Shown here one piece after another: positions 4,387 through 56,145 of a stretch of DNA of 64,000 nt (positions are counted from its first letter, which is position 1; every line of letters starts with the position of its first letter). The stretch lies in the NCBI GenBank assembly GCA_965368975.1, contig CBDUPA010000011.1, forward strand, positions 1 to 64,000, written 5' to 3'. The stretch is from an uncultured bacterium. GTDB lineage: Bacteria; Acidobacteriota; Thermoanaerobaculia; Multivoradales; JAHZIX01. Made by a program: the position numbers and the translations under genes. The notes beneath the pieces are model-generated. The model had not been told where the DNA came from. It searched no databases and worked only from the letters and a program-made list of their open reading frames with translations.

Positions 4387-4435
4387 GGCAGCGTCTCCAC
4401 AGGAGGTCGGGTCTCGAGCCCTGCTGGGATCGAAT

Positions 4436-6316: not shown

Positions 6317-6422
6317 GAGTAGGTCGAGCCAAAGTGCGGTCCGGCGGCCGGAATGCAGCGAAATGCTAGCATGACCTCACCTTCCAATCCTTCGAAACTG
6401 TCGCGCAATAGGAGGCCTCAAG

Positions 6423-7355
6423 ATGACTTGGACTCGCCGTCGTTTCCTCGCTACCACCTCGCTTGTCACGGCCGCGGCCGCGTTGCCCTGGAATCCCCGC
6501 TCATCCTGGATGTCCAGCGCGCTGGCGCAGGAGGCCAGCGGCTCTTTTGAGACGCTGCGCCGTAACATCGGCATCTTCAACGGCCAGGGCGGCACCATCG
6601 GCTGGCTGGTGGCCGACGATGCCCTGGTGGTCGTCGATACCCAGTTCCCCGCGACCGCCGCGACCTGCTGGCAGGGGCTCGACGAGCGTTCCGAGCGTCA
6701 GATCGACCTGCTGATCAACAGCCACCACCACGGGGATCACACCGCCGGCAATGCGGTGTTCCAGCCGCACGCCAAGACCTTCGTGGCGCACGCCAATGTA
6801 CCCGTCTGGCAGAAGAAGGCGACTGAGGCGCGCGGCAACACCGAGGGGCAGGCCTACGCCAGCACCACCTATGAGGACCACTGGCAGTCGGACCTGGGTT
6901 CCGAGAAGGTGCGCCTCGACTATTACGGCCGTGCCCATACCAGTGGAGACTCGGTGATCCATTTCGAGAAAGCGGATGTGGTGCACATGGGCGACCTGGT
7001 GTTCAACCGCTATCCGGCTTTCATCGACCGCCCTGCCGGCGCCACGATCGAGGGCTGGATGCAGCTGCTGGAGAAGGTTCACGCCCGCTTCAGCGACGAC
7101 ACTCTGTTCATCCACGGGCACGGCAATCCCGAGTTCGGTGTCACCGGCGGCCGTGCCGACCTGCTGCACATGCGTGACTTTCTGGGTGCGCTGCTGGAGT
7201 ACGCTCAGAAGGGTATCCAGGCCGGTAAGTCCGAAGATGAGGTGGCGAGTGCCCTGAAGTTGCCGGGCTTCGAGGAGCACTACGCGGAGAGCTGGAAGGT
7301 GGCGATTCCCAACTGCCTGCGCGTCGCGCACCAGGAGGTACGGGAGGGCGCTTGA
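6423..7355 (+). CDS. Tat-exported MBL-fold metallo-hydrolase (cyclase-like)
   Basis: Tat motif TRRRFL; HHHGDH, HTSGD, MGD and HGHG metal ligands. Confidence 0.9.
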   Translation: MTWTRRRFLATTSLVTAAAALPWNPRSSWMSSALAQEASGSFETLRRNIGIFNGQGGTIGWLVADDALVVVDTQFPATAATCWQGLDERSERQIDLLINSHHHGDHTAGNAVFQPHAKTFVAHANVPVWQKKATEARGNTEGQAYASTTYEDHWQSDLGSEKVRLDYYGRAHTSGDSVIHFEKADVVHMGDLVFNRYPAFIDRPAGATIEGWMQLLEKVHARFSDDTLFIHGHGNPEFGVTGGRADLLHMRDFLGALLEYAQKGIQAGKSEDEVASALKLPGFEEHYAESWKVAIPNCLRVAHQEVREGA

Positions 7356-7401
7356 GGACTCTGCTTCTGGCATGGTGTTTGCCTACTGCGAGCGCTGACA
7401 G

Positions 7402-7620
7402 AGATCCACAGTCGGTGTCGAAAAGCCTGTGGAAAACCCTCTGGAAAACTGCCGGAAACTCCGATCTTTCGGGCGTTTCCGGCGTTTTGCACCGATTCCA
7501 GTGCAGCCGGGCTAAGTGTCTGCGAATAGGTGATTTGCCAGGAGTGTTCGAATTCGGGAAAGGTCCGTGAATCGGGAACCGGCGGCTGAGTTTTCCACAG
7601 AAAAAACGACGTCCGGATAA
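7402..7620. promoter_or_regulatory. cluster of DnaA-box-like 9-mers in a convergent intergenic region
   Basis: TGTGGAAAA (7428) and TTTTCCACA (7591) match TTWTNCACA; one-mismatch boxes at 7440 and 7485; two-mismatch boxes at 7402 and 7612. Confidence 0.4.
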
Positions 7621-7704
7621 AACCCCTGCCAAGTAACTGTCGTCACAGGAGTTACAGCCGCGTGACAGCGATGGTCGAGTGCCTCCGCACACCGGCAAGG
7701 GGTA

Positions 7705-10700
7705 TCAATTCTGGAAAGATGGATCGTCGGATCGCTCTTCCAGGAAAGCGAAGCGGTCGCTGCGTAGCTGCCGGCCGGCGTCGGTATCGGCACGGTCGAT
7801 TTCGGTCAGGTAGGCCTCTTCGAGATTCGGCTCGACGGCGTCGCCGGCCAGAGCTTCGCCGGGGCGGGCGACGGCACGCAGGCGCAGCCCCTGCAGGGTG
7901 CGCACGCGCGCCGTGACCCGGTAGCGGTGACCGAAGTCGCGCAGCTCTTGGTCGTCCACCAGGGCGCTGAACACCCGCCCACGCGCCCGCTCGACCAGGG
8001 CGGCGGGTGGACCGTCGAAGCGCAGGCGGCCGCGGTGCAGCAGCAGGATGCGCGAGGCGGCGGCGTCGACATCACTGGCGATGTGGGTGGAAAAGAGAAT
8101 GATGCGCTCGCCGGCAATGGCCAGCAGGGCCTGACGGAAGGCGTCGCGCGACTCGATGTCGAGGCCGGTGGTCGGTTCGTCGACGATCAGGATCGGCGGA
8201 TCACCGAGCAGGGCACGCGCGATACCGGCGCGCTGGCGCATGCCGCCCGAGTAGTCGCGCACCCGTCGGCCGGCGTGCTCTTCCAGGCCGACCTGGCGCA
8301 GCAGGCGCTCGATCTGGCGCTGTCGCTCGGCGCGCTCGAAGATGCCTTTCTCGAGCGCCCAGTAGTCGAGGAATTGCTCGGCGGTGAAGTCGGGGTAGGC
8401 GTTGAATTCTTGCGGCAGGAAGCCGATACGGCGTCGGTAGTGCGCCCGGTTCTCGGGTTCGACCTCGACGCCGTGGAAGGACAGGCCGCCACGGCTCGGT
8501 TCGAGCAGGCCGGTGAGTAGGCGCAGTAGGGTTGTCTTGCCGGCCCCGTTGGGGCCGAGCAGGCCGATGATGCCGGGCCGGAGGTCGAAGCTGACGCCGC
8601 GCAGTGCCTGGAAGCCGCTGCCCCGAGAGGCCAGCAGGCCCCGCGGTCCGGGCTGCCGGTAGATCTTGGTCAGGCGTCGTACGCTGAGCCTCGGCGGCGC
8701 GTCGGCCTGGTGCCAGGCGGGAGGGTCGCGACGCTGCTGGCGGGCCACCGTGTCGCGCTGGCGCCAGGCGATGCCCAGCAGCAGCAGCGCGGGTAAGACG
8801 GTCGCGGTGGTGGCCAGGGAGGTGCCCGCGGCGAGGGCGGCTACCGCCAGCGGCAGACGCCAGGCTTGACCGGGTGCCGCTGCGGAGAAGGTGGCTTCGA
8901 GACCCGGAATCAACGCCGGGCCGGCGAGCACGAGGACGACGGTCAGAACGCTCCACCACCACCAGCCGGCGCTCGCCGCCAGAGGTCGGTAGACCTGGAC
9001 GCCCACCCCATGAGGGCCCCCGTATCTACCACTGTCAGCGCCGTCGGCCGCAGGCCGCCCCAGGATCGCCGCCGCCATCTCCAGCGCCGCCGGCTGCATG
9101 GCGCACAGGGCCGCGGCCAGCGACAGCAGCAGGAACTCGTCGACCTGCCCGGCGCCGCGCGCGATCCAGGGCGTCGCGACCGCCAGGCCGAGAGTGGCCG
9201 GCGCCAGGGCCGCCAGCCCGGCGGGTAGCGAGTTGAGCCGCAGGACGGCGGTGGCGAGCCACAAGAGCGGCAGCGCCAGGGCCAGGCCGAGCAAGCGTAG
9301 GCGTTCTTGCTGCCAGTGCAGTGGCGACAGGTTGGGACGTTCGAGGTCGCTGCCTGCGGGAAGCTCGACGGTCGCCAGCGCGGCATGGACCTTGTCGCGG
9401 CTTTCGCGTCGCATGTCTTCACCGCTGAAGGGGAAGCGCACGTCGACGGTGAGTTCGAAGCGGCCAGAGCGCCGCGGCAGGGCGGGCGGCACCAGTCGTT
9501 CGCGGGTCTGGAACTGGGCCGCCACGACCACCGGCTCCCCATTTGCATCGTCTCCTGGCTGCAACGGAGTTTCCAGCAGCTGTGCGCGTGCCGGCACGTC
9601 GTCGGCGCGCAGCGGATATCCGGGCAGCTGCAGCGTCAGCCAACGCTCGAAGGTCCCCGGCAGTCGCCAGCGCCGCGGCGGTGAGCTGCGCCGGCGCAAC
9701 TCGGCGGCCAGCGTGCTGCCCCGGTCCGCCAGGTATGGGTGTGGCTGCAGTTCCAGGTACTGGCTGGGCACGCCCCAGTCCGTCCGGATGTGGCTGAGCC
9801 GTGTGTCGTGCCGCAGCAGCTGGTCGCGCGTGCGCAGCCAGGCGGTGCGCAGGGCTTCGCCGTCGGTACTGCGCAGCAGGAAGCGGTAGCCGAAGGCGTC
9901 CTCGTCGGCTTCCGGTCGCTGTTCCAGGCTGTCGTCGAAGCGCAGTGCCCCACCCTCGCGGCCTGCGAAGCCGCTGTCGACGGTGACGGCCTGGCCACTC
10001 TGCGCCAGCTCGTAGCTCAGCCGTGTCAACATGCGCCGTCGCCGATCGGGGCGGCGGTGGCGCGGCTGCAGCTCGACGTAGAGGGTCGCTCGCGTCGGCC
10101 CGATCAGGCTCCAGTGGCCGGCGATTGCGGAGGCCTCGCCGAACAGCTGGCTGCGGTCGGCCAGCCCATCGAGCCGCGCTTCGAGTTCACGCACACGCGC
10201 TTCCATCTCGGCCAGGGTCGAGCCCTCGGGCATCGTCACCTCGACGATCAGCTCCCCCGTGTCGGGGCTCAGCGTGCCGGCTCGCGGGTCGAGGGCGTCT
10301 CCGAACACGATCAGCAGCGAGGCGGCGACCGTGACGGCGAACAGCACGACGGTGGCGCTTTGTCGCACCAGGGTCTGCAGTAGGCGACGGCTGAGCGGCA
10401 GGGCTGGCTGCTCCCGCGTGTCGTGCCTGCCAGAGCCTCTGCGAGTGTGGGTTGCCGGCGAGAGTAGCGGCAGGATCGCCAGACCGCCAGCGACGCCGAG
10501 CAGGAAGGTGAGGGCCGCGTCGCGCAGCATGGGGCCGAGGCCGCCGGAGGCCAGGGCCACGGCGATCGGCAGTGCGGCGGCGCTGAGCAGGCAGCTGAGC
10601 GCGCTGCCGGCCCAGGAATACTCGCGTTGCCGAGCCAAGCGCCAGGCGGCCATCGGCAGCACCGTGCACACCCCCAGGATCAGGGCCGGCAGCGACAGGA

Positions 10701-11898
10701 TGTCGAGCGCCAGGTTTCCGGCGGTCTGTCCCTCGGAGAAAAGGATGAGGCGAGCCAACCACAGGAGATTGAGTGCCGCGGCGAGCGCCAGTGGGCCCGC
10801 GAACAGCATGTCCAGTCCGCTGCGCAGCACCCGTGCTCGGCGCGTGCCGCCGGAAGCCCGCGTCTTCCACGTCGAAACCATGGCCAGCAGCGCTCCCAGG
10901 CAGCTGGCCAGGAGCAGACCCAGCCCGAGCCGGCTGAGCAGCGCGCGCAGCGGTTCGGCTTCGCTGTACACCAGGTCGTTGTCGGGACCGAGTTGGGCAC
11001 GCAGCCGGTGTTCGAGCAGCAGCGGTGAGACGTCGGCTTCCCGCCACACCTGCAGGGCCATGCCCTCCTGCCCCTGGTAGTGCACCCGCCAACCTGGTGG
11101 TTGTCGCCGCCCCTGGATGTCTGCCAGAGCACCGAGCGGCACCGTCTGACCGGGACCGGCGACGATCGGCAAGCGCGCCAGGGAGCTGGGTGTCAGGGAC
11201 CCGTCTGCTGTCTGCCGGGGTGCGGCCTGCACGGGTGCGGCCCGCAGAGGCGCGGCCTGCAGAGGCCGGTGACGACCTTCGACAACCGGGTCTCCCAGCG
11301 GCCGGCGTTCGAGTGTCCGGCTCAGCGCATCGCGCACCGGCGTGGCCAGGGCCAGGGCGCGGGGGCGCAGCTGCACGCGTATTTCCTCAGGCCAGCGACC
11401 GAGGATCTGCACGCGCCGCACGCCGTGGACCGCGCGCAAGCGCTCGGCCAGCTCGACCGCCGCGCTGTCGTCGACCTGGCCGAGCCACACGACCACGGCC
11501 AGATCGCCCTCAGCCGAAGACGCGGGAGCCACCTGCAGCACTGCGCCCCGGGGCAACTGCCGGCGCAGACTGGTCAGCTCGGATTCGAGCCTCGAGGCCT
11601 TGCGCTCCGGATCGGTTCCAGCCGCGAAGCGGACGCGCAGAAAGCCACCGCTGGCCGACACCTGGCCGGCGATACCGCGCACATCGCCGAGGGAGCGGAT
11701 CGCCGATTCCAGCGGCACGATCCACTGGCGGGAAACCTCCAGCGGGTCGCTGGAGTCGGGCAGCCGCAGGGACACCGAGAGTTCGGGAAAACGTGTTTCC
11801 GGCAGGAAGCTCAGGGGCAGCCGCCAAGCTGCCAGGCCGCCGAGCAGCAAGATGGCCGCGGCTACGACCGCGCGCGCGAGAGGGCGCCCTTCCGTCAC
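7705..11898 (-). CDS. RND (AcrB-like) permease fused to a C-terminal ABC ATPase domain
   Basis: AcrB-like N-terminus (RLPLSFLPETRFPELSV...IVPLESAIRSLGDV...LRRQLP); from about aa 1071, Walker A GPNGAGKTT, Q-loop, YSGGM, IVDEPT and STH; one uninterrupted 1397-aa frame. Confidence 0.85.
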   Translation of the reverse strand: MTEGRPLARAVVAAAILLLGGLAAWRLPLSFLPETRFPELSVSLRLPDSSDPLEVSRQWIVPLESAIRSLGDVRGIAGQVSASGGFLRVRFAAGTDPERKASRLESELTSLRRQLPRGAVLQVAPASSAEGDLAVVVWLGQVDDSAAVELAERLRAVHGVRRVQILGRWPEEIRVQLRPRALALATPVRDALSRTLERRPLGDPVVEGRHRPLQAAPLRAAPVQAAPRQTADGSLTPSSLARLPIVAGPGQTVPLGALADIQGRRQPPGWRVHYQGQEGMALQVWREADVSPLLLEHRLRAQLGPDNDLVYSEAEPLRALLSRLGLGLLLASCLGALLAMVSTWKTRASGGTRRARVLRSGLDMLFAGPLALAAALNLLWLARLILFSEGQTAGNLALDILSLPALILGVCTVLPMAAWRLARQREYSWAGSALSCLLSAAALPIAVALASGGLGPMLRDAALTFLLGVAGGLAILPLLSPATHTRRGSGRHDTREQPALPLSRRLLQTLVRQSATVVLFAVTVAASLLIVFGDALDPRAGTLSPDTGELIVEVTMPEGSTLAEMEARVRELEARLDGLADRSQLFGEASAIAGHWSLIGPTRATLYVELQPRHRRPDRRRRMLTRLSYELAQSGQAVTVDSGFAGREGGALRFDDSLEQRPEADEDAFGYRFLLRSTDGEALRTAWLRTRDQLLRHDTRLSHIRTDWGVPSQYLELQPHPYLADRGSTLAAELRRRSSPPRRWRLPGTFERWLTLQLPGYPLRADDVPARAQLLETPLQPGDDANGEPVVVAAQFQTRERLVPPALPRRSGRFELTVDVRFPFSGEDMRRESRDKVHAALATVELPAGSDLERPNLSPLHWQQERLRLLGLALALPLLWLATAVLRLNSLPAGLAALAPATLGLAVATPWIARGAGQVDEFLLLSLAAALCAMQPAALEMAAAILGRPAADGADSGRYGGPHGVGVQVYRPLAASAGWWWWSVLTVVLVLAGPALIPGLEATFSAAAPGQAWRLPLAVAALAAGTSLATTATVLPALLLLGIAWRQRDTVARQQRRDPPAWHQADAPPRLSVRRLTKIYRQPGPRGLLASRGSGFQALRGVSFDLRPGIIGLLGPNGAGKTTLLRLLTGLLEPSRGGLSFHGVEVEPENRAHYRRRIGFLPQEFNAYPDFTAEQFLDYWALEKGIFERAERQRQIERLLRQVGLEEHAGRRVRDYSGGMRQRAGIARALLGDPPILIVDEPTTGLDIESRDAFRQALLAIAGERIILFSTHIASDVDAAASRILLLHRGRLRFDGPPAALVERARGRVFSALVDDQELRDFGHRYRVTARVRTLQGLRLRAVARPGEALAGDAVEPNLEEAYLTEIDRADTDAGRQLRSDRFAFLEERSDDPSFQN

Positions 11899-14800
11899 GC
11901 TGAATCCTCGTCGCCGCGCTCTGGAAGTCGGAAAGTCTGCTCCTTCTCGGGGTGGGTCGCTAGCCGGTAGAGAGCCGGTACCAGCAGCAGTGACGCGAAG
12001 GTCGAGGTCACGAGGCCGCCGAGTACCGCCAGGCTGAGTGCGCGTCGCAGCTCGACGCCTTCACCGCCTAGCAGGGCGAGCGGCAGCATGCCGAGCAGGG
12101 TCGTGATGGTGGTCATCAGGATCGGTCGATAGCGTTCCGCCGCGGCACCGCTGAGGGCGTCGAGGGCGGCGGCTCCCGCGCGCCGCAACTGCTCGACACG
12201 GTGCACCAGCACGATGGCGTTGTTGACCACGATGCCGGTGAGCAGGATGAGTCCCAGGAAGGACATGACGTTGAGCGTCTGGCCGGCCACGGTGAGCAAT
12301 GCGACGGCACCCGCGGCCGCCACGGGCACCGTGCTCATCACCACCGCCGGCAGGCGCAGACTCTCGTAGGTGGCGGCGAGGGTGAGAAAGACCAGCACCA
12401 CGGACAGCGCCAACGCCAGAAGAAGCTGTCCGAACGAGCGCTGTAGTTCCAGTGCCGCGCCGCCAGGCCGCACGGCTTCATCCGCGGCCAGGGGCAGCTC
12501 GTCGAGCACGGCTTGTAGCCGGCGAGCCGCCAGGCCGCGCGGGTCGACATCGAGCACCAACCGCACCGACGGACGACCGTCGAAGCGCTGCTCGCGCGGC
12601 GGCCGCAAATCGTCGTGCAGTTGCGCCAGCGCGGCCAGGGGGAGCACGCGGGCGTCGTTGTCTCCCGGGGTGCGCACCGGACCGATGGGCAGGGTCGCCA
12701 GGTCGGCCGGCTGACTGCGCTCAACCCGGATTTCGGGCTCCACGCCGGGCATGTCCACGCGGCCGGCGAGCTGCGGGCCAAGTGCGGCGCGCACCTGGCT
12801 CTCGAGCGCCGCTCGGTCGAGTTGCAATTCGCTCAGCCGTGCCTCGTCCCAGCTCAGGCGCAGCGCCGGTCGTGGTCGGCTGAGTTGTTCGCGATAAGGA
12901 GAGATTCCCAGCCGCTCGGCGACATGTGCGCGGACTCGCTCGGCCAGGGCTTCGGCGCGTGCCGGTTCCGCCGCCGAGACTTCGATCTCGACCCGTCTGC
13001 GCGCCCGCTCCAGCACCTCGACGAAGGCACTCTGGCGCAGGTCGACCTGGGCGCGAATACCGGCGACGCCGCGCACGGCAGCTTCCAGTGCTGACAATCG
13101 CTCTGCAGTATCGGCGGTCTCGGCGCCGAAGGTCAGCTCCAGGTGGCCGATGCCGGTCTCCGTACCGGCGCTATCGCGACGACCGAGATCGTTGCCAGGC
13201 AATGTGCGGCTGCGTTCTTCGTCGGCACCGCGCGCCGAGACGAGCTGCACCAATCCAGGTCCGGCCGCGCGCCGCACTGCCGCCTCTACCGCGCCGCCGC
13301 GCGCCTCGAGGTCGTCGAGTGTCAAGCCTGGGGGTGCCTGCCAGGTCACCAGCACTGTGCGGGCCGCCGCATCCGGCATCAACTCGCGCGGTAGCTGCCT
13401 GCCGAGCTGCGCTGCCGCGGCGAGCAGGATCAGGGTCGGCAACAGCACGAGCCAGGGATGGCGCAGGCACGGTCGCAGCAGGCGCAGGTAGGCTCGCCGG
13501 CCAGGGTGAGAGCCACCCGTCGTAGCAGCGCTGACTTCCTGCCGTGGGCCACGCTGGCGTCCGCCGCTGAGCACGGGCGTCACGGTCAAGGAGAAGAGCA
13601 GCGAGACAGCGAGTGAGCTGACGATGGCGAACGCCTGGGTGCCGAAGAAGGCGCGCGCCAGGCCGTGCAGGTAGAGCAAGGGCAGGAAGACGACGGCGGT
13701 GGTGACGAAGCCGGCGACGACCGCTCCGGCGATCTGCCGGCCACCGGCCAACGCCGGAGACATGTTGCGGTCGCCGCCCTGGCGTTGCCGTTCGCGCGCG
13801 CTCTCGATCGCTTCCAGTACGACGATCGAGTTGTCGACCAGCATGCCCGCGGCCAGAGCCAGTCCGGCCAGCGACACGACATCGAGAGAGATGTTCCACA
13901 GGTAGAAGGCGGCGAAAGCGGTGATGATCGAAGCCGGGATGACGACGGCGAGTGCTAGCGTCGGCGCCCAACGACCGAGCAGGGCGCGCAGCACCAGCGT
14001 GCCCAGGAACAGGCCCACCAGCGCCGCGAGACCGAGCTGCCGCAGCGCATCGACGACTTCGCCGCTGCTGTCGCTGACCAGCCGCAGGGTTAGTGTTCCG
14101 TCTCCGGTAGTGTTCCCTGTCATTTCACTGGTACCGCGCCGGCTCAGTTCCGCCACCCGCTCGCGTATTCGTTCGGCCAAGGCGACGGCGTTGGCGCCGG
14201 GCGCTCGGAAGATGCGCACCAGCGCACCGTCTTCGCCATCGAGTCGGAACCAGGAGCCGTCGTGCAGGGTCTCCAGGCTGACGTCCGCGACATCGCGCAG
14301 CAGTGCGCGCGGGGGGCCGCTGATGCTGCCCTTTGAGGTGCTGCCCTTGGTTGGGATGGTCAAGGAGCGCAGCTGTTCCAGCGAGTAGACGGCCTCCCGC
14401 ACGACCAAGGGCCGCACGGTGCCGCCCGCCCGGGCGCGGCCGGCGCTCTCGGGCAGGCCGATACGGCTCAGCCGGGCCACCAAGTCGGCGGCGGTCAGGT
14501 CACGGGCGGCGAGAGCCGCCGAGCGCGGCGTGACTACCACGTGCCGTGGTGCCAGGCCTAGCAATTCCAGGCGCCCAGCGCCTTGCAGCCGGGCCAGCTC
14601 CGGCGCCAGTACCTTGCGCACGAAGGCGGTGCGCGCCCCTGGTGAAGAACCACCGAGCACCGCCACTTCGACGATCGGCGCCTTGTCTCCGACCGCCAGC
14701 TCGACGGTCAGGTCGCGCGGCGCGTCTTCGAGCGCCGCCAGCCGCCGCTCGGTCTCGATGCGCAGGCGGTCCGGGTCGGTCTGCCATTCGCTCTCGACTA

Positions 14801-15068
14801 CCACCCGGCTGATGCCGTCTCCCGTCTCGCTACGGATCGAGGTGACGCCCGCCAGCGAGGCCAAGCGCCGCTCCAGCGGTTCGGTCACCCCGAGCAGCAA
14901 CTCTTCGCGCGAGCGGTCGTCGGCGCGGGCGGTGATCACCAGCTGCGGCCGTTCGACATTCGGCAGCAGCGACACCGGCAGGCGCAGCAGCGAGAACAAG
15001 CCCAGTACCATCAGCGTCAGGGCACCGATCAGCGTCGAGACAGGCCGCTCGACGGCGAGACGGATCAC
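11895..15068 (-). CDS. RND efflux permease (AcrB/AcrD/AcrF family)
   Basis: RPVST start, GMLVDNSIVVLE (TM4), GIVVNNAIVL (TM10), RYRPILMTT (TM11); 1057 aa. Confidence 0.93.
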   Translation of the reverse strand: MIRLAVERPVSTLIGALTLMVLGLFSLLRLPVSLLPNVERPQLVITARADDRSREELLLGVTEPLERRLASLAGVTSIRSETGDGISRVVVESEWQTDPDRLRIETERRLAALEDAPRDLTVELAVGDKAPIVEVAVLGGSSPGARTAFVRKVLAPELARLQGAGRLELLGLAPRHVVVTPRSAALAARDLTAADLVARLSRIGLPESAGRARAGGTVRPLVVREAVYSLEQLRSLTIPTKGSTSKGSISGPPRALLRDVADVSLETLHDGSWFRLDGEDGALVRIFRAPGANAVALAERIRERVAELSRRGTSEMTGNTTGDGTLTLRLVSDSSGEVVDALRQLGLAALVGLFLGTLVLRALLGRWAPTLALAVVIPASIITAFAAFYLWNISLDVVSLAGLALAAGMLVDNSIVVLEAIESARERQRQGGDRNMSPALAGGRQIAGAVVAGFVTTAVVFLPLLYLHGLARAFFGTQAFAIVSSLAVSLLFSLTVTPVLSGGRQRGPRQEVSAATTGGSHPGRRAYLRLLRPCLRHPWLVLLPTLILLAAAAQLGRQLPRELMPDAAARTVLVTWQAPPGLTLDDLEARGGAVEAAVRRAAGPGLVQLVSARGADEERSRTLPGNDLGRRDSAGTETGIGHLELTFGAETADTAERLSALEAAVRGVAGIRAQVDLRQSAFVEVLERARRRVEIEVSAAEPARAEALAERVRAHVAERLGISPYREQLSRPRPALRLSWDEARLSELQLDRAALESQVRAALGPQLAGRVDMPGVEPEIRVERSQPADLATLPIGPVRTPGDNDARVLPLAALAQLHDDLRPPREQRFDGRPSVRLVLDVDPRGLAARRLQAVLDELPLAADEAVRPGGAALELQRSFGQLLLALALSVVLVFLTLAATYESLRLPAVVMSTVPVAAAGAVALLTVAGQTLNVMSFLGLILLTGIVVNNAIVLVHRVEQLRRAGAAALDALSGAAAERYRPILMTTITTLLGMLPLALLGGEGVELRRALSLAVLGGLVTSTFASLLLVPALYRLATHPEKEQTFRLPERGDEDSA

Positions 15069-16315
15069 GGCTGGCCCTCGTTCGCTTCACTACCGTCCGT
15101 GCCATTCTCGGAGTCGCCATTCTCGGAGTTGTCGCCTTGCTCGCTGCTGCGGCCGGGGTCGCTATCGGCACTGCGCGCCAAAGCTCCGTCGCTGAGGAAC
15201 GACACACCGTCGACGGCGACGCGATCGCCGGCCACCACGCCCGAGAGGATCTCGATACGACCCTCGCCACGGCCGCCCAGCTCGACGCCACGCCGCTCGG
15301 CGCGGTAGCCGCCGCCGGTCGACTGCAGCACATAGACCGAGGCGTTGCCCTCGTCCACCAGCACGGCCTGCTCGGGCAGCGTGAGCACGTTCCGCCGCTC
15401 GCTCATCTCGACCTTCACCTGCACGCCCTCGCCGGGTGCCGGCAGGTTGGTGACATCCAAGACTTCCATCACCACCCGCACCGTACCGCCCGCGTCGACC
15501 ACCGGTGCCACTTCGCGGATCGTTCCCTCGCCGCCATAGGTGGTGCCGCCGGGCGGCGCGAAGCGTACCGTCAAGCCGGGCTTCAAGTTGTCGCGCTCGG
15601 CAGCGGCGGCCCAACCCTCGACCCTCGGCGCGCCCTGGCTGGCGATCTCGGCCAGCACGCCGCCGGCCAGGATCTCCGAGCCGGGCGGCAGCAGCCGCTG
15701 CACGATCAGGTGCCCCGAGGCCGATGCCCGCACATCCAGCCGTCGTGCTCGTTGACGGGCGTCGTCGAGTCGCTTGCCTGCCAGTTCGGCTTGTAGCTGG
15801 GCGCGCTCCAGCTCGGCCTCGGCGACCAAGCCTTCGTCGAAGCTGCGTTGCATGCGCTCCAGCTCCGCCGTCGCCGAGCGTGCCTCCAGCTCGGCCTCGG
15901 TCAGGCGCAGCTGCAGATCCTGGTTCTCGACCACCGCCAAGATCTCACCGTCGCGGACCGCCTCGCCGGTGCGCAGACCGGCACGGAAGCGCCGCGGGTA
16001 GCTGACGATGCCGCTGGCCGGGCTCACCACCGCCACCGTGGCCGCTGGCTGTACCGAGCCCAGCAGGGTCAGGGTAGCCCGATGCGGTGCGCGCGTCAGC
16101 ACCTCGGTGGTGACAGTGACCGCGGGTTCCTGCGGCTGGAAGGGCTCTGGCTGCTGGCAGGCCGTCAGGCTCAGGATGAGACCGGGAAACAGCACCGCGC
16201 GCAGCAGGATGGAGGCAACGCGGGCAGTCGAGCGGCGGGCGGTCGAGCGGCGGGCGGTCGAGCGGCGGGCGGTCGAGCGGCGGGCAGTCGAGCGGTGGGC
16301 AGAAAGTCGAGGCAT
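15065..16315 (-). CDS. RND periplasmic adaptor (membrane fusion protein), lipoprotein
   Basis: Lipobox LSLTAC, lipoyl halves flanking a coiled hairpin, C-terminal VELGGRGEGRIEILSGVVAGDRV. ATG 16315 has GGAG upstream; alternative GTG at 16351. Confidence 0.9.
   Translation of the reverse strand: MPRLSAHRSTARRSTARRSTARRSTARRSTARVASILLRAVLFPGLILSLTACQQPEPFQPQEPAVTVTTEVLTRAPHRATLTLLGSVQPAATVAVVSPASGIVSYPRRFRAGLRTGEAVRDGEILAVVENQDLQLRLTEAELEARSATAELERMQRSFDEGLVAEAELERAQLQAELAGKRLDDARQRARRLDVRASASGHLIVQRLLPPGSEILAGGVLAEIASQGAPRVEGWAAAAERDNLKPGLTVRFAPPGGTTYGGEGTIREVAPVVDAGGTVRVVMEVLDVTNLPAPGEGVQVKVEMSERRNVLTLPEQAVLVDEGNASVYVLQSTGGGYRAERRGVELGGRGEGRIEILSGVVAGDRVAVDGVSFLSDGALARSADSDPGRSSEQGDNSENGDSENGTDGSEANEGQP
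16221..16302. repeat. 15-bp tandem repeat (5 copies plus a partial) encoding RSTAR units in the MFP signal n-region
   Basis: cgggcrgtcgagcgg units start at 16221, 16236, 16251, 16266 and 16281. Confidence 0.95.
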
Positions 16316-16347
16316 GGTCGTCTCCGGTGGGCTCAATTCAGGGGGAC

Positions 16348-17079
16348 TCACTTCAGCAGGGTTTCCGGGCGCAGCAGTCGGCGCCGGGCATAGAGAAAGA
16401 ACAGCACGATGGCCGCGATCAGCACGGCCAAGTGGGTCGACCACTCGAGTGCCTCCTCGGCGCTGGGCAAGAAGATGCCGCTCTTGGAGTGATAGCGGTT
16501 GGGCATCGGATCGAAAAAGAACCAGCGTTGCAACAGCAGGATGGTGATCACGGAGGCGCTCCACACGGCTCCGGCCGAGTGCACGTGCACCGCCCAGAAG
16601 AGCACCACGCTGCCGAGCAGCGCGTTGGCGGCCAGCACCTGCAACACCACGGACACCAGCGGGAACGGGTCGGTACCGAAGAACCAGAAGCCGAGTAGCA
16701 CCAGCAGCGCCTGGGCGCCGGTAATCGTCAGCACGGCGCCGATGCGCCGCAAGAAGTACGCCTCTACGCTGGCCGTGGTCAGCGCCAGGTCGAGACTGCC
16801 AGCTTGCCGCTCCAGCGCCACCAGGTTGGCCATGGCGGGTACCCCGAGGAGCAGCAACGGGTGCAGCGTGACGCTACGGTAGACCTGGCTCAGGCCACCC
16901 CCGGCAATCCACATCAGCAGCAGCTGGCCGATCACCAGGACGGCGTCGAGGATCAGGAACAGGACTTCTCGACGTCCCAACAACAAGCCCAGCGACAGCC
17001 GCAGGCGCCGCAGTTCGGCGCCTGGACGTCCTTCCAGGAGGCGCTGGCGCCAGGAGGGCCTGGGCTCGGGCCGATTCAC
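16348..17079 (-). CDS. small ABC-2-type permease subunit
   Basis: About 6 TM segments with ANLVALERQAGSLDLALT (ER-x-x-G coupling motif); GTGA overlap with the upstream gene. Confidence 0.7.
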   Translation of the reverse strand: MNRPEPRPSWRQRLLEGRPGAELRRLRLSLGLLLGRREVLFLILDAVLVIGQLLLMWIAGGGLSQVYRSVTLHPLLLLGVPAMANLVALERQAGSLDLALTTASVEAYFLRRIGAVLTITGAQALLVLLGFWFFGTDPFPLVSVVLQVLAANALLGSVVLFWAVHVHSAGAVWSASVITILLLQRWFFFDPMPNRYHSKSGIFLPSAEEALEWSTHLAVLIAAIVLFFLYARRRLLRPETLLK

Positions 17080-19919
17080 AGCTGGTACTCCACGCGGGTC
17101 AGACCGTCGCGGGCGAAGCGGAAGCACTTGCCGCCGGGGTCGAGGGCCAGCGCCTGGGGCGGATAGCTGGTGCTGAGCTGGAAGGAGACGCTGCCACCGC
17201 TGCTGCCACCACTGCCGACCTCGATCACCGTCTCGGCCGGGGCCAGGTCGGTGAACAGCACCAGCGGGCAGCGGACCGCGCCATCGCCCTCGTTCACCAC
17301 GCGGCCGCTCGCCAGCCAGCGATTTCCCTGGCGTTGAAAGCGGACGTCGCGCAGCACCGGCTCGGGCAGCGCGGAGCCGGTGAGGAGCTGTTGATGGAAG
17401 TCTTGCAGGTCGACGCCGGAGATCTCTTCGAGCAGGTCCATCAGTTCGGAGAGGTGACCGGCCTGGTCGATCGGATGGTCCTCCGATGGGACCAGGAAGC
17501 GATCGACGGCCTCGTAGAGGTTAGGGGTGCCGACCAGGTACTGCAGGTAGTGCAGCAGCGCTGGCAGGCGGCTGCTCAGGGAAGAACTCCACGGCGACCT
17601 GGCGTCGAGGATCGACGCGCGTAGACCGTCCTTGAGCCAGGCTTTGGCGTGCACCACGGCGCTCGGCTCCTCGAGTTCCCCCAGCCGCTGGCGTACCAGC
17701 TGATCGAGCAGCGCGGCCATCAGGATCTCCTGGTCGCTGGCGATCGTCCGTGTGTGGCGAATCTGCGCGCGCGCCAGCTCGGACACCAGCGCACTCGTGC
17801 GCAGAGCCTTGGTGCGCACCAGCTCCGCTTCGTTGACCAGGACCACCTTGCCGAAGGTAGCTCGTTCCTGCCGCGGAAAGAACGACAGCCACCAGCCTGA
17901 AAAGCCGCGAGCCGACATGGGCTGCTCGAGGAAGATCAGGCCCTGACCAGAAGTGACGCCCGGCCACGCCTCATCCAATTTCTTGCGCGCGTTGTCCAGT
18001 GCTGGTCGGTGAAGAGCGGCCTGGTGCCGGTGTTGCGGCAGGACGGCCAGCTGCAGCCTTTCGCCGGTCGTAGCGCCGGCTGTATCGCTGGCCGTCAAGC
18101 TGGTAGAGGCTCGGCTGGGCTGATCGTCGGCAACCAGCACCAAGGGGCCTCCGAGCACGCCGATGCGATCAAGGGGCAGACGGCACGAGCTGCGCAGCGC
18201 CCGCGCGTCCGCCCGGTCGCCCGTTCGTGCACCCGTCTCGGCAGGCACGACCTCACCGCAAGCACTGGCCAGCAGCCATCGTGCCGGCACGCCCAAGTCC
18301 AGCTCGAAGGTGGCCAGCGGAAAGATCTGCTCCTCGGGCACCTCGTTCCCGGGGCCACCGGGCGATGTCGGTGGAGGGGTCAGCTGCCAGGTCGTGTAGC
18401 GAGGCAGCGGCAGCAGGGACGCACCGGTCAGGAAGACACTCCGTGTCTGTGCGTTGCGGTGGCGGCTGCTGTGTCCCAGCTCGGAGAGATCCTGCGGCTG
18501 GGTCCCACTCAGGAAGTTCTGGTAGCGGATGTTGAAGGGCATGCTGCCGACTCCGCGCAAGCGGAAAGCCACCGTCTCGGAGTACCCTTCGAGCTGCAGG
18601 CGTAGCGTGCGTGACTCGCCGGCCTCCAGAGGCGGTTGCAGGTCGAGCCGCAGTCGATCCCACTGCCGGTGCACCGAGACGCCCTCGTCGACGGGTTGCG
18701 CGTCGAGACCAGCGTTGAGCTGCAGCATCAGGGCTGGCAGCGCTTCGGCGCCCGTGTTACGGAAGGTGAGGTCGACGTCTGCCTGCAGCTGTCCGTCTGG
18801 CACCAGGCGTCCGCGCAGCGCGTAGCGCTCGGGAACCAGCGTGCGTGGATTGACCAGAGCCTCCTGATCCATCTCGGCGGCGAAGCGCTCGGCCGCCAAC
18901 TGCTGGAAGTGCTCGCTGCGCGCTAGCCGATAGCCGGACACCGCCAGCAGGAGTAGCGCTGCCAGGCTCAGCATGGCCAGATCTGCCGCCAGCGGCTTGG
19001 GGTCTGGCCAGTAGCGCATGCGCAGGTTGCTCAGCCAGTTGAGATAGGTGCGCAGAGGATGCTTGGGCGAGATGCGCCAGGGGCGAACATCCGGAGCCGT
19101 GCGGCGTAGGAAGAGGGTCGCGGGACCGAGCAGGCAGACGGCCAGTGTCAGTACGAAGAGGCTGTGCGCGAGCAGCGTGTCGAGGATGAGCTGCAGGTCC
19201 ATCGGTGCCTCGCTGAAGCTGATCTGACCCAAGCCGAAGCGCTGCGACTCCGGGGCGTTGGTTTGCAGCACCAGGCTCAACCACACGGCGAAGGTTGTCG
19301 AATGCGGCCATTCGGCGGATTCCCAGGTGGTGTGGAAACGGGCTAACAGTTGCAGCAGCAGCGGTGAGGCGACCAGGGTCAGGCCGAGGTAGAAGAGTAA
19401 GAAGCCGATCCAGCTACCGGTGATGGTGCCGATGGCCAGGGCGCCACCGGAAGCCGCGAGAAGAGACGGCAGCACCCATAGCAGCCAGGGCAAGAAGTAA
19501 TGACCGACTTCGGCCGCGGGTAGCCCCAGAGTCACGGGAAGCAAGGAGGTGAGGAGCGGCGGCAGCAGGGTCCAGGGCAGCAGGGTGGAGACCACTCCAC
19601 ACCAGCGTGCCAGCAGGTAGCTGGCGTTGCTCACCCCGGTCAGGCCGACCACCGCCCACGCGCCCTCGGAGCGCTCGCGCTCGATGGCGTCCATGGCGAC
19701 CAGTGCCGACAGCACGGCAACCAGGAACACCTGCAGCTCGAAAGTCGGCTGCAGGTAGCTGACGGTGCCCACCAACACGTCGCTACGGTCGCGCAGCAGC
19801 AGCTGGTAGAGCACCGGCAGCATGCTGCCCGCCAGGTACAGGGCGACCAGCAGCCGGTAGCGCGTACTGCGCAGCTGTGTCCGCCATTCGTGCGCGATGA
19901 AGGCGCGCAACAGCGTCAT
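17076..19919 (-). CDS. ABC-2 permease fused to an M1-aminopeptidase-like extracytoplasmic domain (catalytically degenerate)
   Basis: N-terminal TMs with ERERSEGAW; C-terminal M1-like beta domains; SELAR where HExxH is expected. ATG 19919 overlaps the upstream stop (ATGA). Confidence 0.75.
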   Translation of the reverse strand: MTLLRAFIAHEWRTQLRSTRYRLLVALYLAGSMLPVLYQLLLRDRSDVLVGTVSYLQPTFELQVFLVAVLSALVAMDAIERERSEGAWAVVGLTGVSNASYLLARWCGVVSTLLPWTLLPPLLTSLLPVTLGLPAAEVGHYFLPWLLWVLPSLLAASGGALAIGTITGSWIGFLLFYLGLTLVASPLLLQLLARFHTTWESAEWPHSTTFAVWLSLVLQTNAPESQRFGLGQISFSEAPMDLQLILDTLLAHSLFVLTLAVCLLGPATLFLRRTAPDVRPWRISPKHPLRTYLNWLSNLRMRYWPDPKPLAADLAMLSLAALLLLAVSGYRLARSEHFQQLAAERFAAEMDQEALVNPRTLVPERYALRGRLVPDGQLQADVDLTFRNTGAEALPALMLQLNAGLDAQPVDEGVSVHRQWDRLRLDLQPPLEAGESRTLRLQLEGYSETVAFRLRGVGSMPFNIRYQNFLSGTQPQDLSELGHSSRHRNAQTRSVFLTGASLLPLPRYTTWQLTPPPTSPGGPGNEVPEEQIFPLATFELDLGVPARWLLASACGEVVPAETGARTGDRADARALRSSCRLPLDRIGVLGGPLVLVADDQPSRASTSLTASDTAGATTGERLQLAVLPQHRHQAALHRPALDNARKKLDEAWPGVTSGQGLIFLEQPMSARGFSGWWLSFFPRQERATFGKVVLVNEAELVRTKALRTSALVSELARAQIRHTRTIASDQEILMAALLDQLVRQRLGELEEPSAVVHAKAWLKDGLRASILDARSPWSSSLSSRLPALLHYLQYLVGTPNLYEAVDRFLVPSEDHPIDQAGHLSELMDLLEEISGVDLQDFHQQLLTGSALPEPVLRDVRFQRQGNRWLASGRVVNEGDGAVRCPLVLFTDLAPAETVIEVGSGGSSGGSVSFQLSTSYPPQALALDPGGKCFRFARDGLTRVEYQL

Positions 19920-20815
19920 GCACTGTCCTCGAGCGGCTGTGCCGGGGCCTGGGTCTGGCGGGCCAGGAAGGCGGCGTAGGCTTCTTCGAGCATGGTCTCG
20001 CGCGGCCTTGCCGCGGCCGGCCGTTCGACAGCGTGCACCACCTGCACGGTCTCGCCGTCCACCAGGCGCCGGGTGACGAGCGTTGCGTCCGCCGGCAACT
20101 CGGCGTCTGCCGCCAGCTGCCACAGCTGACCGTCGAAACGGCGCATCAGGGTACCGGGCTCGCCATCGAACAGGACGCGCCCGCGAGCAATGACGGCGAT
20201 GCGCGCACAGGTCGCTTCGATGTCTTCCACGATGTGGGTCGACAGCAGTACCGCCGTGTACTCGGCGACCTCGGTGATCAGATTGCGGAAGCGGATGCGT
20301 TCTTCTGGATCGAGCCCGGCGGTTGGCTCGTCGACCACCAGCAGGCGGGGGCGGTGGATCAGGGCCTGCGCAATTCCCAGCCGCCGCTTCATGCCGCCCG
20401 AGTAGCTACCCGCGCGGCGGCCGGCCGCGGTCTGCAGGTCGACGGCGTCGAGCAGCTGCTCCACGCGCTCCTCCAGCCGCCGAGGGCTGAGCGGCACGCG
20501 GCGTAGCTGTCCGCAGTGGCGCAGGTACTCGCGTCCGCTGAGCTGACCGATCGGCGCGAAATCCTGCGGTAGGTAGCCGATGCACTGTCGAATCTGCGGC
20601 CGGTCGCGTCGGCGGCCGGCATCGAGATCCTGGTACACGCGCTCGCCGGTGGTCGGTTCCAGCCGCAACACCAGGATCGACAACAGTGTCGTCTTGCCGG
20701 CTCCGTTGGGACCCAGCAGGCCGATCATTCCATCGCCGATCTCCAGATCGACGCCCCGCAGGGCAGGGGTGCCGTCCGGATAAACCTTCCGGATGTCGTT
20801 CAGTCGGATGTTCAT
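19916..20815 (-). CDS. ABC transporter ATP-binding protein
   Basis: GPNGAGKTT, YLPQ, YSGGM, VVDEPTAGLDP, STH. Confidence 0.95.
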   Translation of the reverse strand: MNIRLNDIRKVYPDGTPALRGVDLEIGDGMIGLLGPNGAGKTTLLSILVLRLEPTTGERVYQDLDAGRRRDRPQIRQCIGYLPQDFAPIGQLSGREYLRHCGQLRRVPLSPRRLEERVEQLLDAVDLQTAAGRRAGSYSGGMKRRLGIAQALIHRPRLLVVDEPTAGLDPEERIRFRNLITEVAEYTAVLLSTHIVEDIEATCARIAVIARGRVLFDGEPGTLMRRFDGQLWQLAADAELPADATLVTRRLVDGETVQVVHAVERPAAARPRETMLEEAYAAFLARQTQAPAQPLEDSA

Positions 20816-20955
20816 GAGTGCCGGTCCTGCTCGTGGAAGGGAAGCCTGATTGTATCTACGTACGTTCGGCTTCAGCGTTGTAGTCCACCTCTGTCGTCCT
20901 CTTCAGCGTGTACATGTCAAGAGTCTCGAGGGGCGTGGTCTACAATGTTGCCGTC

Positions 20956-21822
20956 ATGAAGCCCTTTCAGCATCCCGACCTGCCGGATCAGCGGCCGGAA
21001 GCCTCCGCCGCGCACTGGCGGGTGCGCTTGCATGAAGTGATCTTCGAGGCCGACACGCCGGCCGGCAAGGCCTTCGATGTCGCGCTCCTGATCGCGATTC
21101 TGCTGAGCGTCTTCGCGGTTCTGCTAGAGAGCGTAGCGGGAATTCGCTTGCACTACGGTCGCGAGCTGCGGCTGCTGGAGTGGGTGTTCACCATCCTGTT
21201 CACCCTAGAGTACTTGCTGCGCTTGCTCTGCGTCGGTCGTCCGGCCGCCTATGCCCGTAGCTTCTTCGGTGTCGTCGACCTGCTCGCTATCCTGCCCAGT
21301 TACCTGAGCCTGGTAGTAGCTGGTACGCAGTCGCTGATCGTCATCCGCGCCATCCGCCTGCTACGCGTCTTCCGTGTGCTCAAGCTGGCACATTTCGTCG
21401 GCGAGTCTCAGATGCTCGGCTCCGCTCTGCGCGCCAGCAGCCGCAAGATCATCGTCTTCTTGGGAACGGTGCTCACGTTGGTCGTCATCATTGGTTCGGT
21501 GATGTACCTGATCGAGGGTGAAGAGAACGGCTTCACGAGCATTCCGCAATCCATGTACTGGGCCATCGTCACCATGACCACCGTCGGCTATGGAGATATC
21601 GCTCCTGGCACGCTGGTGGGAAAGTTGCTGGCCTCGTTCGTGATGGTCATCGGCTACGGCATCATCGCTGTTCCGACCGGCATCGTCACGGTCGAGATGA
21701 GTCGGCGTCCGCAGCCCGTATCCACTCGCTGCTGCCGTCAGTGCGGGGTCGAGGGTCACGATGCCGACGCCAAGTTCTGCAAGGCCTGCGGCGAGTTGCT
21801 GGACCAGCCTCTGGTATCCTGA
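20956..21822 (+). CDS. voltage-gated-type potassium channel (ion transporter) with C-terminal zinc ribbon
   Basis: S4 segment RAIRLLRVFRVLK, filter TVGYGD, CRQC...CKAC. Confidence 0.93.
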   Translation: MKPFQHPDLPDQRPEASAAHWRVRLHEVIFEADTPAGKAFDVALLIAILLSVFAVLLESVAGIRLHYGRELRLLEWVFTILFTLEYLLRLLCVGRPAAYARSFFGVVDLLAILPSYLSLVVAGTQSLIVIRAIRLLRVFRVLKLAHFVGESQMLGSALRASSRKIIVFLGTVLTLVVIIGSVMYLIEGEENGFTSIPQSMYWAIVTMTTVGYGDIAPGTLVGKLLASFVMVIGYGIIAVPTGIVTVEMSRRPQPVSTRCCRQCGVEGHDADAKFCKACGELLDQPLVS

Positions 21823-21854
21823 ACGCAGTTGGATCGGAGGTCGAGTTCACCAAG

Positions 21855-30856: not shown

Positions 30857-30942
30857 TAGCTCGACAGGTACTGCGATAGGCTTGGCACCATCTGTTTGTC
30901 GTTTCGTTGATATAGCCTCGAAGTCCGAGGAGGAGATCTACC

Positions 30943-33078: not shown

Positions 33079-33131
33079 CCGACCTGCCAGAGGCAGCGGA
33101 CGGCAAGGCGCCAGACAAGCGGAGACTCGAC

Positions 33132-49899: not shown

Positions 49900-50002
49900 G
49901 TTCTCGCCGGACGACGATGCCGTGGGCACGGCTCGTCCAGTGAGACACAACCACCGGGGTCGCCGCTACGTCTGGCGACCCCGGTTCTTGAGATGTGGCA
50001 AC

Positions 50003-56141: not shown

Positions 56142-56145
56142 GGTC

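Follow-up and report, generated by a model that had tools for sequence, protein, structure and literature searches.

The minus strand of contig CBDUPA010000011.1 (assembly GCA_965368975.1), which derives from an uncultured member of the Acidobacteriota, carries six consecutive co-directional open reading frames (ORFs) between positions 7705 and 20815, designated g1 to g6 in the order of their transcription. The analysis covered the first 64,000 nucleotides (nt) of this contig, referred to as the window. The last gene of the series, g6, encodes in a single polypeptide a membrane body resembling the resistance-nodulation-division (RND) permeases and a complete ATP-binding cassette (ABC) ATPase domain, that is, a nucleotide-binding domain (NBD). 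RND pumps are the classic example of proton-driven efflux in Gram-negative bacteria, and ABC transporters are the classic example of ATP-driven transport. The g6 protein and its operon therefore raise two possibilities, either a relay from an ATP-driven extractor to a conduit formed by RND and adaptor proteins, or an RND fold that has been re-powered by ATP. Each of these, if true, would represent a principle of energy coupling or assembly that is new to envelope transport. Under the second, g6 and its relatives would be the first ATP-powered members of the RND superfamily, in which the fold of a secondary transporter has been captured by the motor of primary transport.

Gene order and boundaries of the operon

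The six genes and their products are as follows (aa, amino acids).

g1, 19916-20815, minus strand: free ABC ATPase, 299 aa
g2, 17076-19919, minus strand: membrane domain followed by a large C-terminal domain, 947 aa
g3, 16348-17079, minus strand: small polytopic membrane protein, 243 aa
g4, 15065-16315, minus strand: membrane fusion protein (MFP), 416 aa counted from the ATG behind GGAG
g5, 11895-15068, minus strand: canonical HAE-1-type RND permease, 1057 aa
g6, 7705-11898, minus strand: RND-like body ending in a complete ABC ATPase domain, 1397 aa

Four of the junctions are start/stop overlaps, namely ATGA at 19916-19919 between g1 and g2 (minus-strand reading GCATGACG) and GTGA at 17076-17079 between g2 and g3 (CTGTGAAT), at 15065-15068 between g4 and g5 (CCGTGATC), and at 11895-11898 between g5 and g6 (GCGTGACG). 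Between g3 and g4 lies a gap of 32 nt, with GGAG positioned 6 nt 5' of the g4 ATG at 16315. The GTG starts of g3, g5, and g6 are presumptive; for g6, the GTG at 11898 is the earliest possible start, and homology to RND proteins begins by residue 5. A first-pass annotation, generated by a model from the sequence without database searches, had described the same six-gene parts list, with the same coordinates and the same four overlaps. The ORFs were confirmed, its domain calls for g1, g4, g5, and g6 fit, and every overlap was read at the expected position on the minus strand. It had also reported that the window holds no TolC gene, which agrees with the absence of the OEP/TolC Pfam domain from the 32 ORFs scanned (the six of the operon and 26 others, with small ORFs lying outside the scan).

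Upstream, the operon is flanked by a divergent ion-channel gene (20908-21822, plus strand), and downstream by a convergent gene for a protein of the metallo-beta-lactamase fold (6423-7355, plus strand). The promoter scan returned no promoter-like sites, and the seven terminator-like sites, against 4.4 expected, all fall within genes and are uninformative. Rfam and tRNA scans of the window detected neither rRNA nor tRNA. The best explanation of the arrangement appears to be a single transcription unit comprising two export modules, g1-g3 and g4-g6, which would be joined via g6.

An ORF of 185 aa at 7141-7698 was considered as a seventh gene and rejected, its product being Arg/Pro/Ser-rich and devoid of a transmembrane (TM) segment and its position being within the convergent intergenic region. 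With respect to base composition, the G+C content is 0.70-0.72 over g4-g6 and 0.67-0.68 over g1-g3 (positions 8001-16000 compared with their flanks), and it is 0.63-0.64 in the 2-kb windows at the operon edges (6001-8000 and 20001-22000). The polyketide synthase (PKS) region at 26-32 kb also has a G+C content of about 0.69-0.70, and the difference may represent ordinary heterogeneity.

The fusion protein g6 and its RND companions

The g6 protein can be divided into three parts.

g6 RND-like body, aa 1-1044, 8767-11898, minus strand: ACR_tran match, 12 TM segments
g6 linker, aa 1045-1069, 8692-8766, minus strand: Arg-rich stretch connecting TM12 to the first NBD strand
g6 fused ABC ATPase domain, aa 1070-1397, 7705-8691, minus strand: all catalytic motifs

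Both domains are recognized by Pfam, as ACR_tran at aa 5-184 (E 4e-23) and as ABC_tran at aa 1099-1244 (E 2.3e-33), within one continuous reading frame. The G+C content by codon position (GC3) follows a single phase along all 1397 codons, including the junction between the two domains. In the junction stretch (aa 1037-1076) there is no in-frame ATG; V1073, in the first NBD strand, is encoded by GTA, which is not a start codon; and the sole GTG, at V1051, is preceded by neither GGAG nor another Shine-Dalgarno-like sequence. This stretch contains no relic of a separate ATPase gene. According to Kyte-Doolittle hydropathy, the topology comprises TM1, a loop of 298 aa, TM2-6, TM7, a loop of 333 aa, and TM8-12. 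The cytoplasmic loops contain 6, 3, 7, 1, and 3 Lys and Arg residues, as against 0, 1, 1, and 1 in the short periplasmic loops. The 12 TM segments together with this positive-inside pattern would place the ATPase domain in the cytoplasm, about 25 residues past TM12.

The same combination of domains recurs in sequence databases. ACR_tran and ABC_tran are both listed in 15 of the 30 ESM Atlas clusters nearest to g6, found in the rows at ranks 1, 2, 3, 7, and 9 (1+6+6+1+1), with cluster sizes of 64-143 members; these clusters are known by their domain content and automatic names only. The top cluster, with a score of 1.00 (252/256 features), contains 81 members and has a representative of 1213 aa; ACR_tran is present in 78% of its members, and Acidobacteriota is the commonest phylum. 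The representatives of the other clusters with both domains measure 1612, 1561, 963, and 661 aa. These data suggest that the architecture is common in uncultured soil phyla, with Acidobacteriota leading among those few members whose phylum is known. Genome contigs from 185,579 species, queried with aa 1-1075 of g6 and six 8-residue patterns, contained no close relative, the only matches being two generic RND loci, L001 and L002 (25% and 19% identity), the latter from Jannaschia. In plasmid tblastn, none of the at least 5000 matching records covered 80% or more of the full g6 query, all matches being to the NBD only, and the body alone matched 20 records, all of them generic RND N-terminal matches covering at most 26% of the query. 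In the full-text literature searched, with subscription journals and supplements outside its scope, no description was found of an RND-ABC ATPase fusion or of an ABC-2/M1 permease fusion, and the passages available from a 2021 review in Chemical Reviews (PMC8277102) include none on an RND-ABC ATPase fusion. The architecture is thus visible in automatic database clusters but appears unstudied.

Such a fusion could in principle arise from an assembly or sequencing artefact, or from the recent chance loss of a stop codon in a decaying RND gene. Such an origin would be in keeping with the high G+C, which makes chance open frames of great length more likely, with the restriction of detectable RND homology to the N-terminal half of the g6 body, and with the absence of close relatives from the genome-contig search with its six patterns. 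An accident would leave unexplained the single GC3 phase over 1397 codons, the retention of TM number, loop lengths, and positive-inside bias, the lack of a start or stop remnant at the junction, and the existence of clusters of 64-143 members with the same two-domain content, of which the top one scores 1.00. An artefact or accident is consequently regarded as highly improbable, and from these sequence comparisons the RND-NBD fusion is concluded to be a recurrent natural family. The reality of the fusion, as described in the first-pass annotation, is in this respect upheld.

The RND body of g6 is strongly diverged. Its identity to g5 is 29%, over the first 184 aa only, and a three-sequence RND profile aligns with aa 11-574 (hhalign probability 98.6%), with a further weak ACR_tran match, below cutoff, at aa ~503-634 (E 8.4e-5). 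The C-terminal half of the body was not detectable with the RND profile in hhalign (probability 0.25%). MdtB is among the best solved matches of g6 (E 4.5e-7). An AlphaFold2 (AF2) model of the body, built from a four-row alignment, reached a mean predicted local distance difference test (pLDDT) score of 41.8 and was too poor for use. A 15-nt repeat in three copies (11222-11266, minus strand) lies in the part of the gene for the first periplasmic loop and encodes the Ala/Pro-rich run PLQAAPLRAAPVQAAPRQ, which is an insertion relative to the three other RND proteins in the alignment.

In contrast to g6, g5 has the characteristics of a canonical RND permease. ACR_tran covers it at full length (aa 1-1036, E 4.7e-158), residues 3-1036 align with the solved MdtB chain 9lyq_B (E 6.6e-67), and 12 TM segments with two large periplasmic loops are predicted. 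In AcrB, the RND proton relay consists of D407 and D408 in TM4, K940 in TM10, and R971 in TM11, as described in passages of the same review (PMC8277102). In g5, TM4 carries Asp-Asn, of which D412 is invariant among the three canonical RND proteins compared (g5, L001, and L002); TM10 has Asn-Asn where L001 has Lys-His; and the Arg-Pro of TM11 is retained. This Asp-Asn/TM10-Asn variant is common to g5 and the Jannaschia RND (L002). In g6, the TM4 motif VDxAIVVLE, which holds the Asp invariant in the other three, falls in a gap in both the MAFFT and the hhalign alignments, and in the phmmer alignment D407-D408 of the solved pump 8yr0_A stand opposite G394-N395. At the TM10 position, occupied by Lys in L001 and by Asn in g5 and L002, g6 has Met-Gln (ALCAMQ). 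The TM11 Arg-Pro (R971-P972) is the only relay element kept. According to a passage of the review (PMC8277102), RND activity is lost when the central acidic residues are replaced. On the basis of this finding and the loss of the TM4 and TM10 elements, g6 itself is probably unable to use the proton gradient.

The adaptor gene g4 is identified by RND_mfp TIGR01730 (132.4 bits against a cutoff of 94.9, E 1.7e-38) and also matches HlyD_3 (E 8.7e-9). Its product is a probable lipoprotein, with the lipobox LSLTAC read by eye. A 15-nt tandem repeat of 5.4 copies at 16220-16300 (minus strand; Tandem Repeats Finder score 141, 95% matches) encodes about five units of (RSTAR)n in the very basic N-terminal tail of g4, ahead of the hydrophobic segment and the lipobox. 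If translation of g4 started instead at the GTG at about 16219, this repeat would fall in the g3-g4 intergenic region.

The loss of the relay gives room to the possibility that g6 is itself an ATP-energized RND protein, in which the fused NBD would dimerize beneath the pseudo-symmetric 12-TM body with a second g6 NBD or with g1, so that ATP would drive an RND-like cycle, and g2/g3 would be a separate ABC exporter or dispensable for g6. The TM4 acidic motif and the TM10 position have been lost while a competent ATPase has been gained, the linker of about 25 residues would hold the NBD directly beneath the RND membrane domain, and the Arg-Pro of TM11 has been kept. The fusion family is, moreover, large, and its representatives of 1561-1612 aa have sufficient length to accommodate another NBD or an extra membrane domain. 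These points are set against the short cytoplasmic loops of g6, in which no coupling-helix-like element was found by eye, and against the lineage of the NBD, which normally serves ABC-2 permeases, putative examples of which are encoded three genes upstream. The divergence of the C-terminal half of the body leaves doubt as to whether RND-like cycling persists, and to our knowledge no RND fold couples to an NBD. An ATP-energized g6 is therefore considered unlikely. The corresponding proposal for the whole g6 family is likewise a doubtful one; it holds that these RND-fold transporters no longer rely on the proton gradient and that a dimer of ABC ATPases, formed by the fused NBD together with either g1 or another fused NBD, powers them instead.

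The ATPases and the presumed ABC-2-like subunits

The free ATPase g1 and the fused NBD of g6 belong to the same subfamily. For g1, matches were obtained to ABC_tran (E 3.2e-26), to TIGR01188 drrA (1.5e-54), and to GldA (5e-47), the latter two below the curated cutoffs, and the fused NBD matches drrA with an E value of 7.1e-48. In both proteins the Walker A motif, the Q-loop, the YSGGM signature, the Walker B motif with its Glu, the D-loop, and the H-loop are intact. The sequence motifs quoted in the first-pass annotation (ALRGV, GLLGPNGAGKTTLL, IGYLPQDF/IGFLPQEF, YSGGM, and LEEAY) were all found in both, LEEAY standing at the end of a C-terminal extension that they have in common. Among solved proteins, the closest to the fused NBD are ABCA3 (E 1.4e-56), ABCA7, ABCA4, ABCA1, and NosF (6.9e-34).

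The further claim that the two are close paralogs holds only as far as the common subfamily. They are 39% identical to each other over 271 aa (163 bits, E 9e-53), whereas both find their best matches in the same plasmid ATPases, at 42-46% identity and 177-199 bits each; these come from Halobacterium, Haloferax, Rhodococcus, Sphingomonas, and Zymomonas, that is, from haloarchaeal, actinobacterial, and alphaproteobacterial plasmids. In a maximum-likelihood tree of 11 ATPase rows, g1 and the fused NBD were not joined and their placement was unresolved; by path, g1 lay nearest to the Sphingomonas row and the fused NBD nearest to the Rhodococcus row. Good support was limited to one inner branch of this tree, and two of its outgroups carried a long-branch flag. 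A third ATPase of the window scores lower against the two (84 and 67 bits, 32-34% identity). It is encoded in the stretch 55251-57672 (plus strand) as a protein of 296 aa (ABC_tran, 1.1e-25), followed by an overlapping ORF of 528 aa, which has no Pfam match and is not similar to the 529-aa Haloferax permease.

The usual partners of this ATPase subfamily were examined at seven plasmid loci, and in all seven the ATPase gene lies directly upstream of one or more genes for ABC-2-type or ABC-2/M1-fusion permeases. The products encoded after the ATPase are listed below.

Haloferax: 529 aa; ABC2_membrane_3
Rhodococcus: 512 + 213 aa; ABC2_membrane_3 on the 512-aa protein
Zymomonas: 1016 aa; two separate regions matching ABC-2 membrane families
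Sphingomonas: 609 aa (ABC2_membrane), then a 332-aa M1 piece (Peptidase_M1)
Halobacterium: 235 + 260 aa; ABC2_membrane_3 on the 235-aa protein
Gemmatirosa: ORF called by its match to the Chondrinema protein (29% identity)
Chondrinema: 1176 aa; ABC2_membrane, and Peptidase_M1 at 850-1050

No RND gene is annotated in the stretch examined at the six annotated loci. At the Sphingomonas locus (Sphingomonas sp. R1 plasmid pR1a, 3998-8855), a TolC-family gene adjoins on the opposite strand at the locus edge, and the ABC-2/M1 permease seems to be divided between a membrane protein of 609 aa and a 332-aa "M1 family aminopeptidase", whose genes are separated by an unannotated 760 nt. Since g1 and the fused NBD share their best plasmid matches, and since these have ABC-2 neighbors, the fused NBD would descend from a lineage that docks on such permeases. 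Because g6 has no ABC transmembrane domain (TMD) of its own, docking of its NBD on g2/g3 would be compatible with this descent.

The presumed ABC-2-like membrane subunits are g2 and g3, of which g2 comprises two domains.

g2 N-terminal membrane domain, aa 1-330, 18930-19919, minus strand: ABC-2-like, read as 7 TM segments, N-terminus cytoplasmic
g2 C-terminal domain, aa 331-947 (617 aa), 17076-18929, minus strand: predicted periplasmic

Six of the TM segments of g2 were detected by Kyte-Doolittle hydropathy, and the seventh (aa ~101-127) was read by eye, as was an AIERERSEG motif after TM2. With seven segments and the Arg-rich N-terminus inside, the 617-aa C-terminal domain would be located in the periplasm. 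Residues 62-187 align with the first TMD of the ABC-2/M1-fusion permeases (hhalign probability 76.5%, E 2.2e-5). The match of the membrane domain to GldF is weak and far below cutoff (E 5.4e-4), and that to Pfam ABC2_membrane_3 reaches an E value of 0.49 only. The nearest ESM Atlas cluster of g2 (0.99) is an unnamed 914-aa family of Acidobacteriota, and in the next clusters (0.96) Peptidase_M1 occurs in 82-100% of the members and ABC2_membrane families in 12-29%. No match to g2 was obtained in plasmid tblastn, and BLASTP against the Chondrinema and Gemmatirosa proteins gave a weak match of the membrane domain at most, or none. The AF2 model of g2 from the single sequence had a mean pLDDT of 35.6 and was unusable.

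These Atlas neighbors alone support the label "M1-like" that had been attached to g2. The C-terminal domain has no Pfam match at E<=10 and no PDB match at E<=1, and the profile of the M1-fusion permeases found no match in hhalign outside the membrane domain. The hallmarks of M1 metallopeptidases are the HEXXH(+E) zinc site and the GxMEN motif, and a motif check of the g2 sequence found both HEXXH and GxMEN absent. If this domain is M1-derived, its sequence indicates that it is not a peptidase. In the case of g3, termed a small permease in the earlier annotation, the 5-6 TM segments predicted from hydropathy and the GTGA overlap with g2 fit the term, whereas the family searches do not add to it. 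No match was found to any ABC-2 membrane family in Pfam, NCBIfam, or PDB, nor in hhalign to the profile of the M1-fusion permeases or to that of the small ABC-2 permeases. From topology and operon position only, we infer that g3 is the second TMD.

The plasmid loci also bear on the first-pass inference that two NBDs and two different TMDs make up one heterodimeric ABC transporter, since at the six annotated loci only one ATPase gene of the subfamily adjoins the permease gene or genes. By the same token, the g1-g2-g3 module would need no second NBD, which weakens the two-NBD/two-TMD argument. This observation opens the alternative of two independent pumps in one operon. One would be (g1)2-g2-g3 alone, and the other an MdtABC-like complex of g4, g5, and g6 driven by g5, in which the fused NBD would be regulatory (for example, in gating by the ATP level) or nearly functionless. 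In addition to the single ATPase gene of ABC-2 modules examined elsewhere, such a division is consistent with g5 being a complete canonical RND protein with the TM4 Asp and with g1 and the fused NBD not being a close pair. It accounts less readily for the retention of all catalytic motifs in the fused NBD and the occurrence of the fusion in many clusters, which argue for a selected ATPase function, and for the translational coupling that runs throughout the operon. Two separate pumps are accordingly judged rather improbable, although second in rank among the explanations considered.

Proposed assembly and relation to known systems

The explanations can be ordered with g6 as a coupling subunit in first place, followed by two independent pumps, an ATP-energized RND protein, and finally an artefact. 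The first is itself put forward tentatively, as a plausible possibility and not with confidence. The RND body of g6 would join g5 and the adaptor, and its NBD would pair with g1 on g2/g3, thereby tethering the exporter to the conduit. The first-pass annotation had likewise proposed a heterodimeric ABC transporter with one NBD attached to an RND protomer, a model with which the present data are compatible. In this scheme, g1-g3 would form an ABC-2 (type V)-like exporter composed of an ATPase of the DrrA/GldA class, a permease with 7 TM segments and a large, non-catalytic periplasmic domain, and a second subunit with 6 TM segments, and g4-g6, laid out like mdtABC, would provide a lipoprotein adaptor, a canonical RND protein, and a strongly diverged RND paralog. 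The RND-like body would sit with g5 and the adaptor as in MdtBC heterotrimers, and the g6 ATPase would fill one of the two NBD positions beneath g2/g3, paired with g1. Through this tether, material could be handed from the inner membrane or the cytoplasm to the RND/adaptor conduit across the periplasm, the outer-membrane partner presumably being encoded elsewhere. Co-assembly, NBD pairing, transport direction, and substrate are features that we infer from sequence. There is a weak hint, by analogy, that the substrate may be a lipid or another amphiphile, because ABCA lipid exporters are the closest relatives among solved ATPases and because of the large periplasmic domain.

Several features argue for g6 as a coupling subunit. 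The operon is tight, with four 4-nt overlaps and one 32-nt gap; the fusion is a single, recurrent ORF whose NBD is predicted to be cytoplasmic; the ATPase motifs are intact in both g1 and g6; the lineage of the fused NBD serves ABC-2 permeases; and VDxAIVVLE has been lost from g6. Precedents for parts of the scheme exist in MdtBC-type heterotrimers, described in passages of PMC8277102, and in the ybhGFSR operon, described in passages of PMC7190983.

A number of considerations weigh in the opposite direction. No contact between any two of the six proteins was seen in this analysis, and a co-fold of four chains (g2 1-300, g3 15-243, and g1 1-220, with the fused NBD 1066-1303 as partner), run without alignments, ligands, or controls, gave a best score of 0.28 against a mark of 0.34 and is evidence neither way. 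The sequences of g1 and the fused NBD do not look like those of a co-evolved pair. Obligate heterodimeric ABC transporters often have a degenerate nucleotide site, and both NBDs here are fully canonical, with no degenerate site. Each of the six annotated plasmid loci contains one adjacent subfamily ATPase gene, and (g1)2-g2-g3 could be complete without g6. The evidence behind the ABC-2 permease label of g2 and g3 is weak, and proton coupling of g5, given Asp-Asn in TM4 and no Lys in TM10, is likely, not certain. Moreover, trimers are the usual state of RND pumps and dimers that of ABC transporters, and it is not obvious in what ratio the subunits of a joint complex would combine.

Outside the operon, the window encodes several further gene groups. 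At 26279-35366 (plus strand) are a PKS module (ACP-KS-AT, 1525 aa), an ACP-aminotransferase fusion (711 aa), and a patatin-Omp85 fusion (744 aa), which, judging from their domains, may constitute a small biosynthesis cluster for a lipid or amino-lipid. At 36464-45307 (minus strand) lies the gene for a 2947-aa RHS/YD-repeat protein with N-terminal cohesin, Ig-like/cadherin-like, FG-GAP, and PASTA domains, which looks like a surface protein of the polymorphic-toxin type. Two copies of one gene pair, in which an FG-GAP/ASPIC-UnbV protein (626 and 617 aa) is encoded beside a multi-TPR protein (732 and 494 aa), are located at 2344-6316 (minus strand) and at 49922-53072 (plus strand). A Ser/Thr kinase and a sigma-54 activator are also encoded, and the gene context fits a diderm soil bacterium.

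Among the known systems, the mdtABC operon and its MdtBC heterotrimers (described in passages of PMC8277102) provide the closest parallel to g4-g6, with the same order of adaptor, RND, and RND and with MdtB among the best solved matches of both g5 and g6. The second RND protein here differs in lacking the TM4 and TM10 relay motifs and in carrying a C-terminal ABC ATPase. A parallel to the arrangement of g1-g3 with an adaptor is found in E. coli YbhGFSR, an ABC exporter whose operon contains genes for two distinct permeases and for an MFP and which, according to the passages available from PMC7190983, is thought to reach an outer-membrane channel. In that system the NBDs are supplied by the free YbhF and there is no RND protein, whereas here the second NBD resides on the RND-like g6 and two RND genes are present; the likeness of YbhS/YbhR to g2/g3 is one of gene arrangement, not of sequence comparison. 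MacAB-TolC, in which ATP powers a pump working through an MFP and an outer channel (abstract of PMC5673888; passage of PMC8277102), shares with the present system an ATP-driven component and an MFP, but MacB carries its NBD on its own ABC permease and not on an RND fold, and neither g2 nor g3 matched MacB/FtsX in Pfam or NCBIfam.

The modules composed of an ATPase and an ABC-2/M1-fusion permease (Chondrinema litorale WP_284688054.1/WP_284688055.1, Zymomonas pZZM404, and Gemmatirosa plasmid 1) resemble g1-g3 in that their ATPases are 39-46% identical to g1 or the fused NBD, the g2 membrane domain aligns with the first TMD of their permeases, and the Atlas neighbors of g2 are that family. They differ in that their permeases are single proteins of ~1000-1200 aa, whereas the membrane part here is divided between g2 and g3. 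The Chondrinema permease has its ABC-2 membrane matches at the N-terminus and Peptidase_M1 near the C-terminus, and g2 has neither a Pfam M1 match nor HEXXH. The ABCA and NosF ATPases of type V/ABC-2, the closest solved relatives of the fused NBD, belong to eukaryotic full transporters or are a free bacterial ATPase, and none is carried on an RND fold. None of mdtABC, ybhGFSR, and MacAB-TolC joins an RND fold to an ABC ATPase; the ACR_tran and ABC_tran clusters of the ESM Atlas, with representatives of 661-1612 aa, have the same two-domain content as g6.

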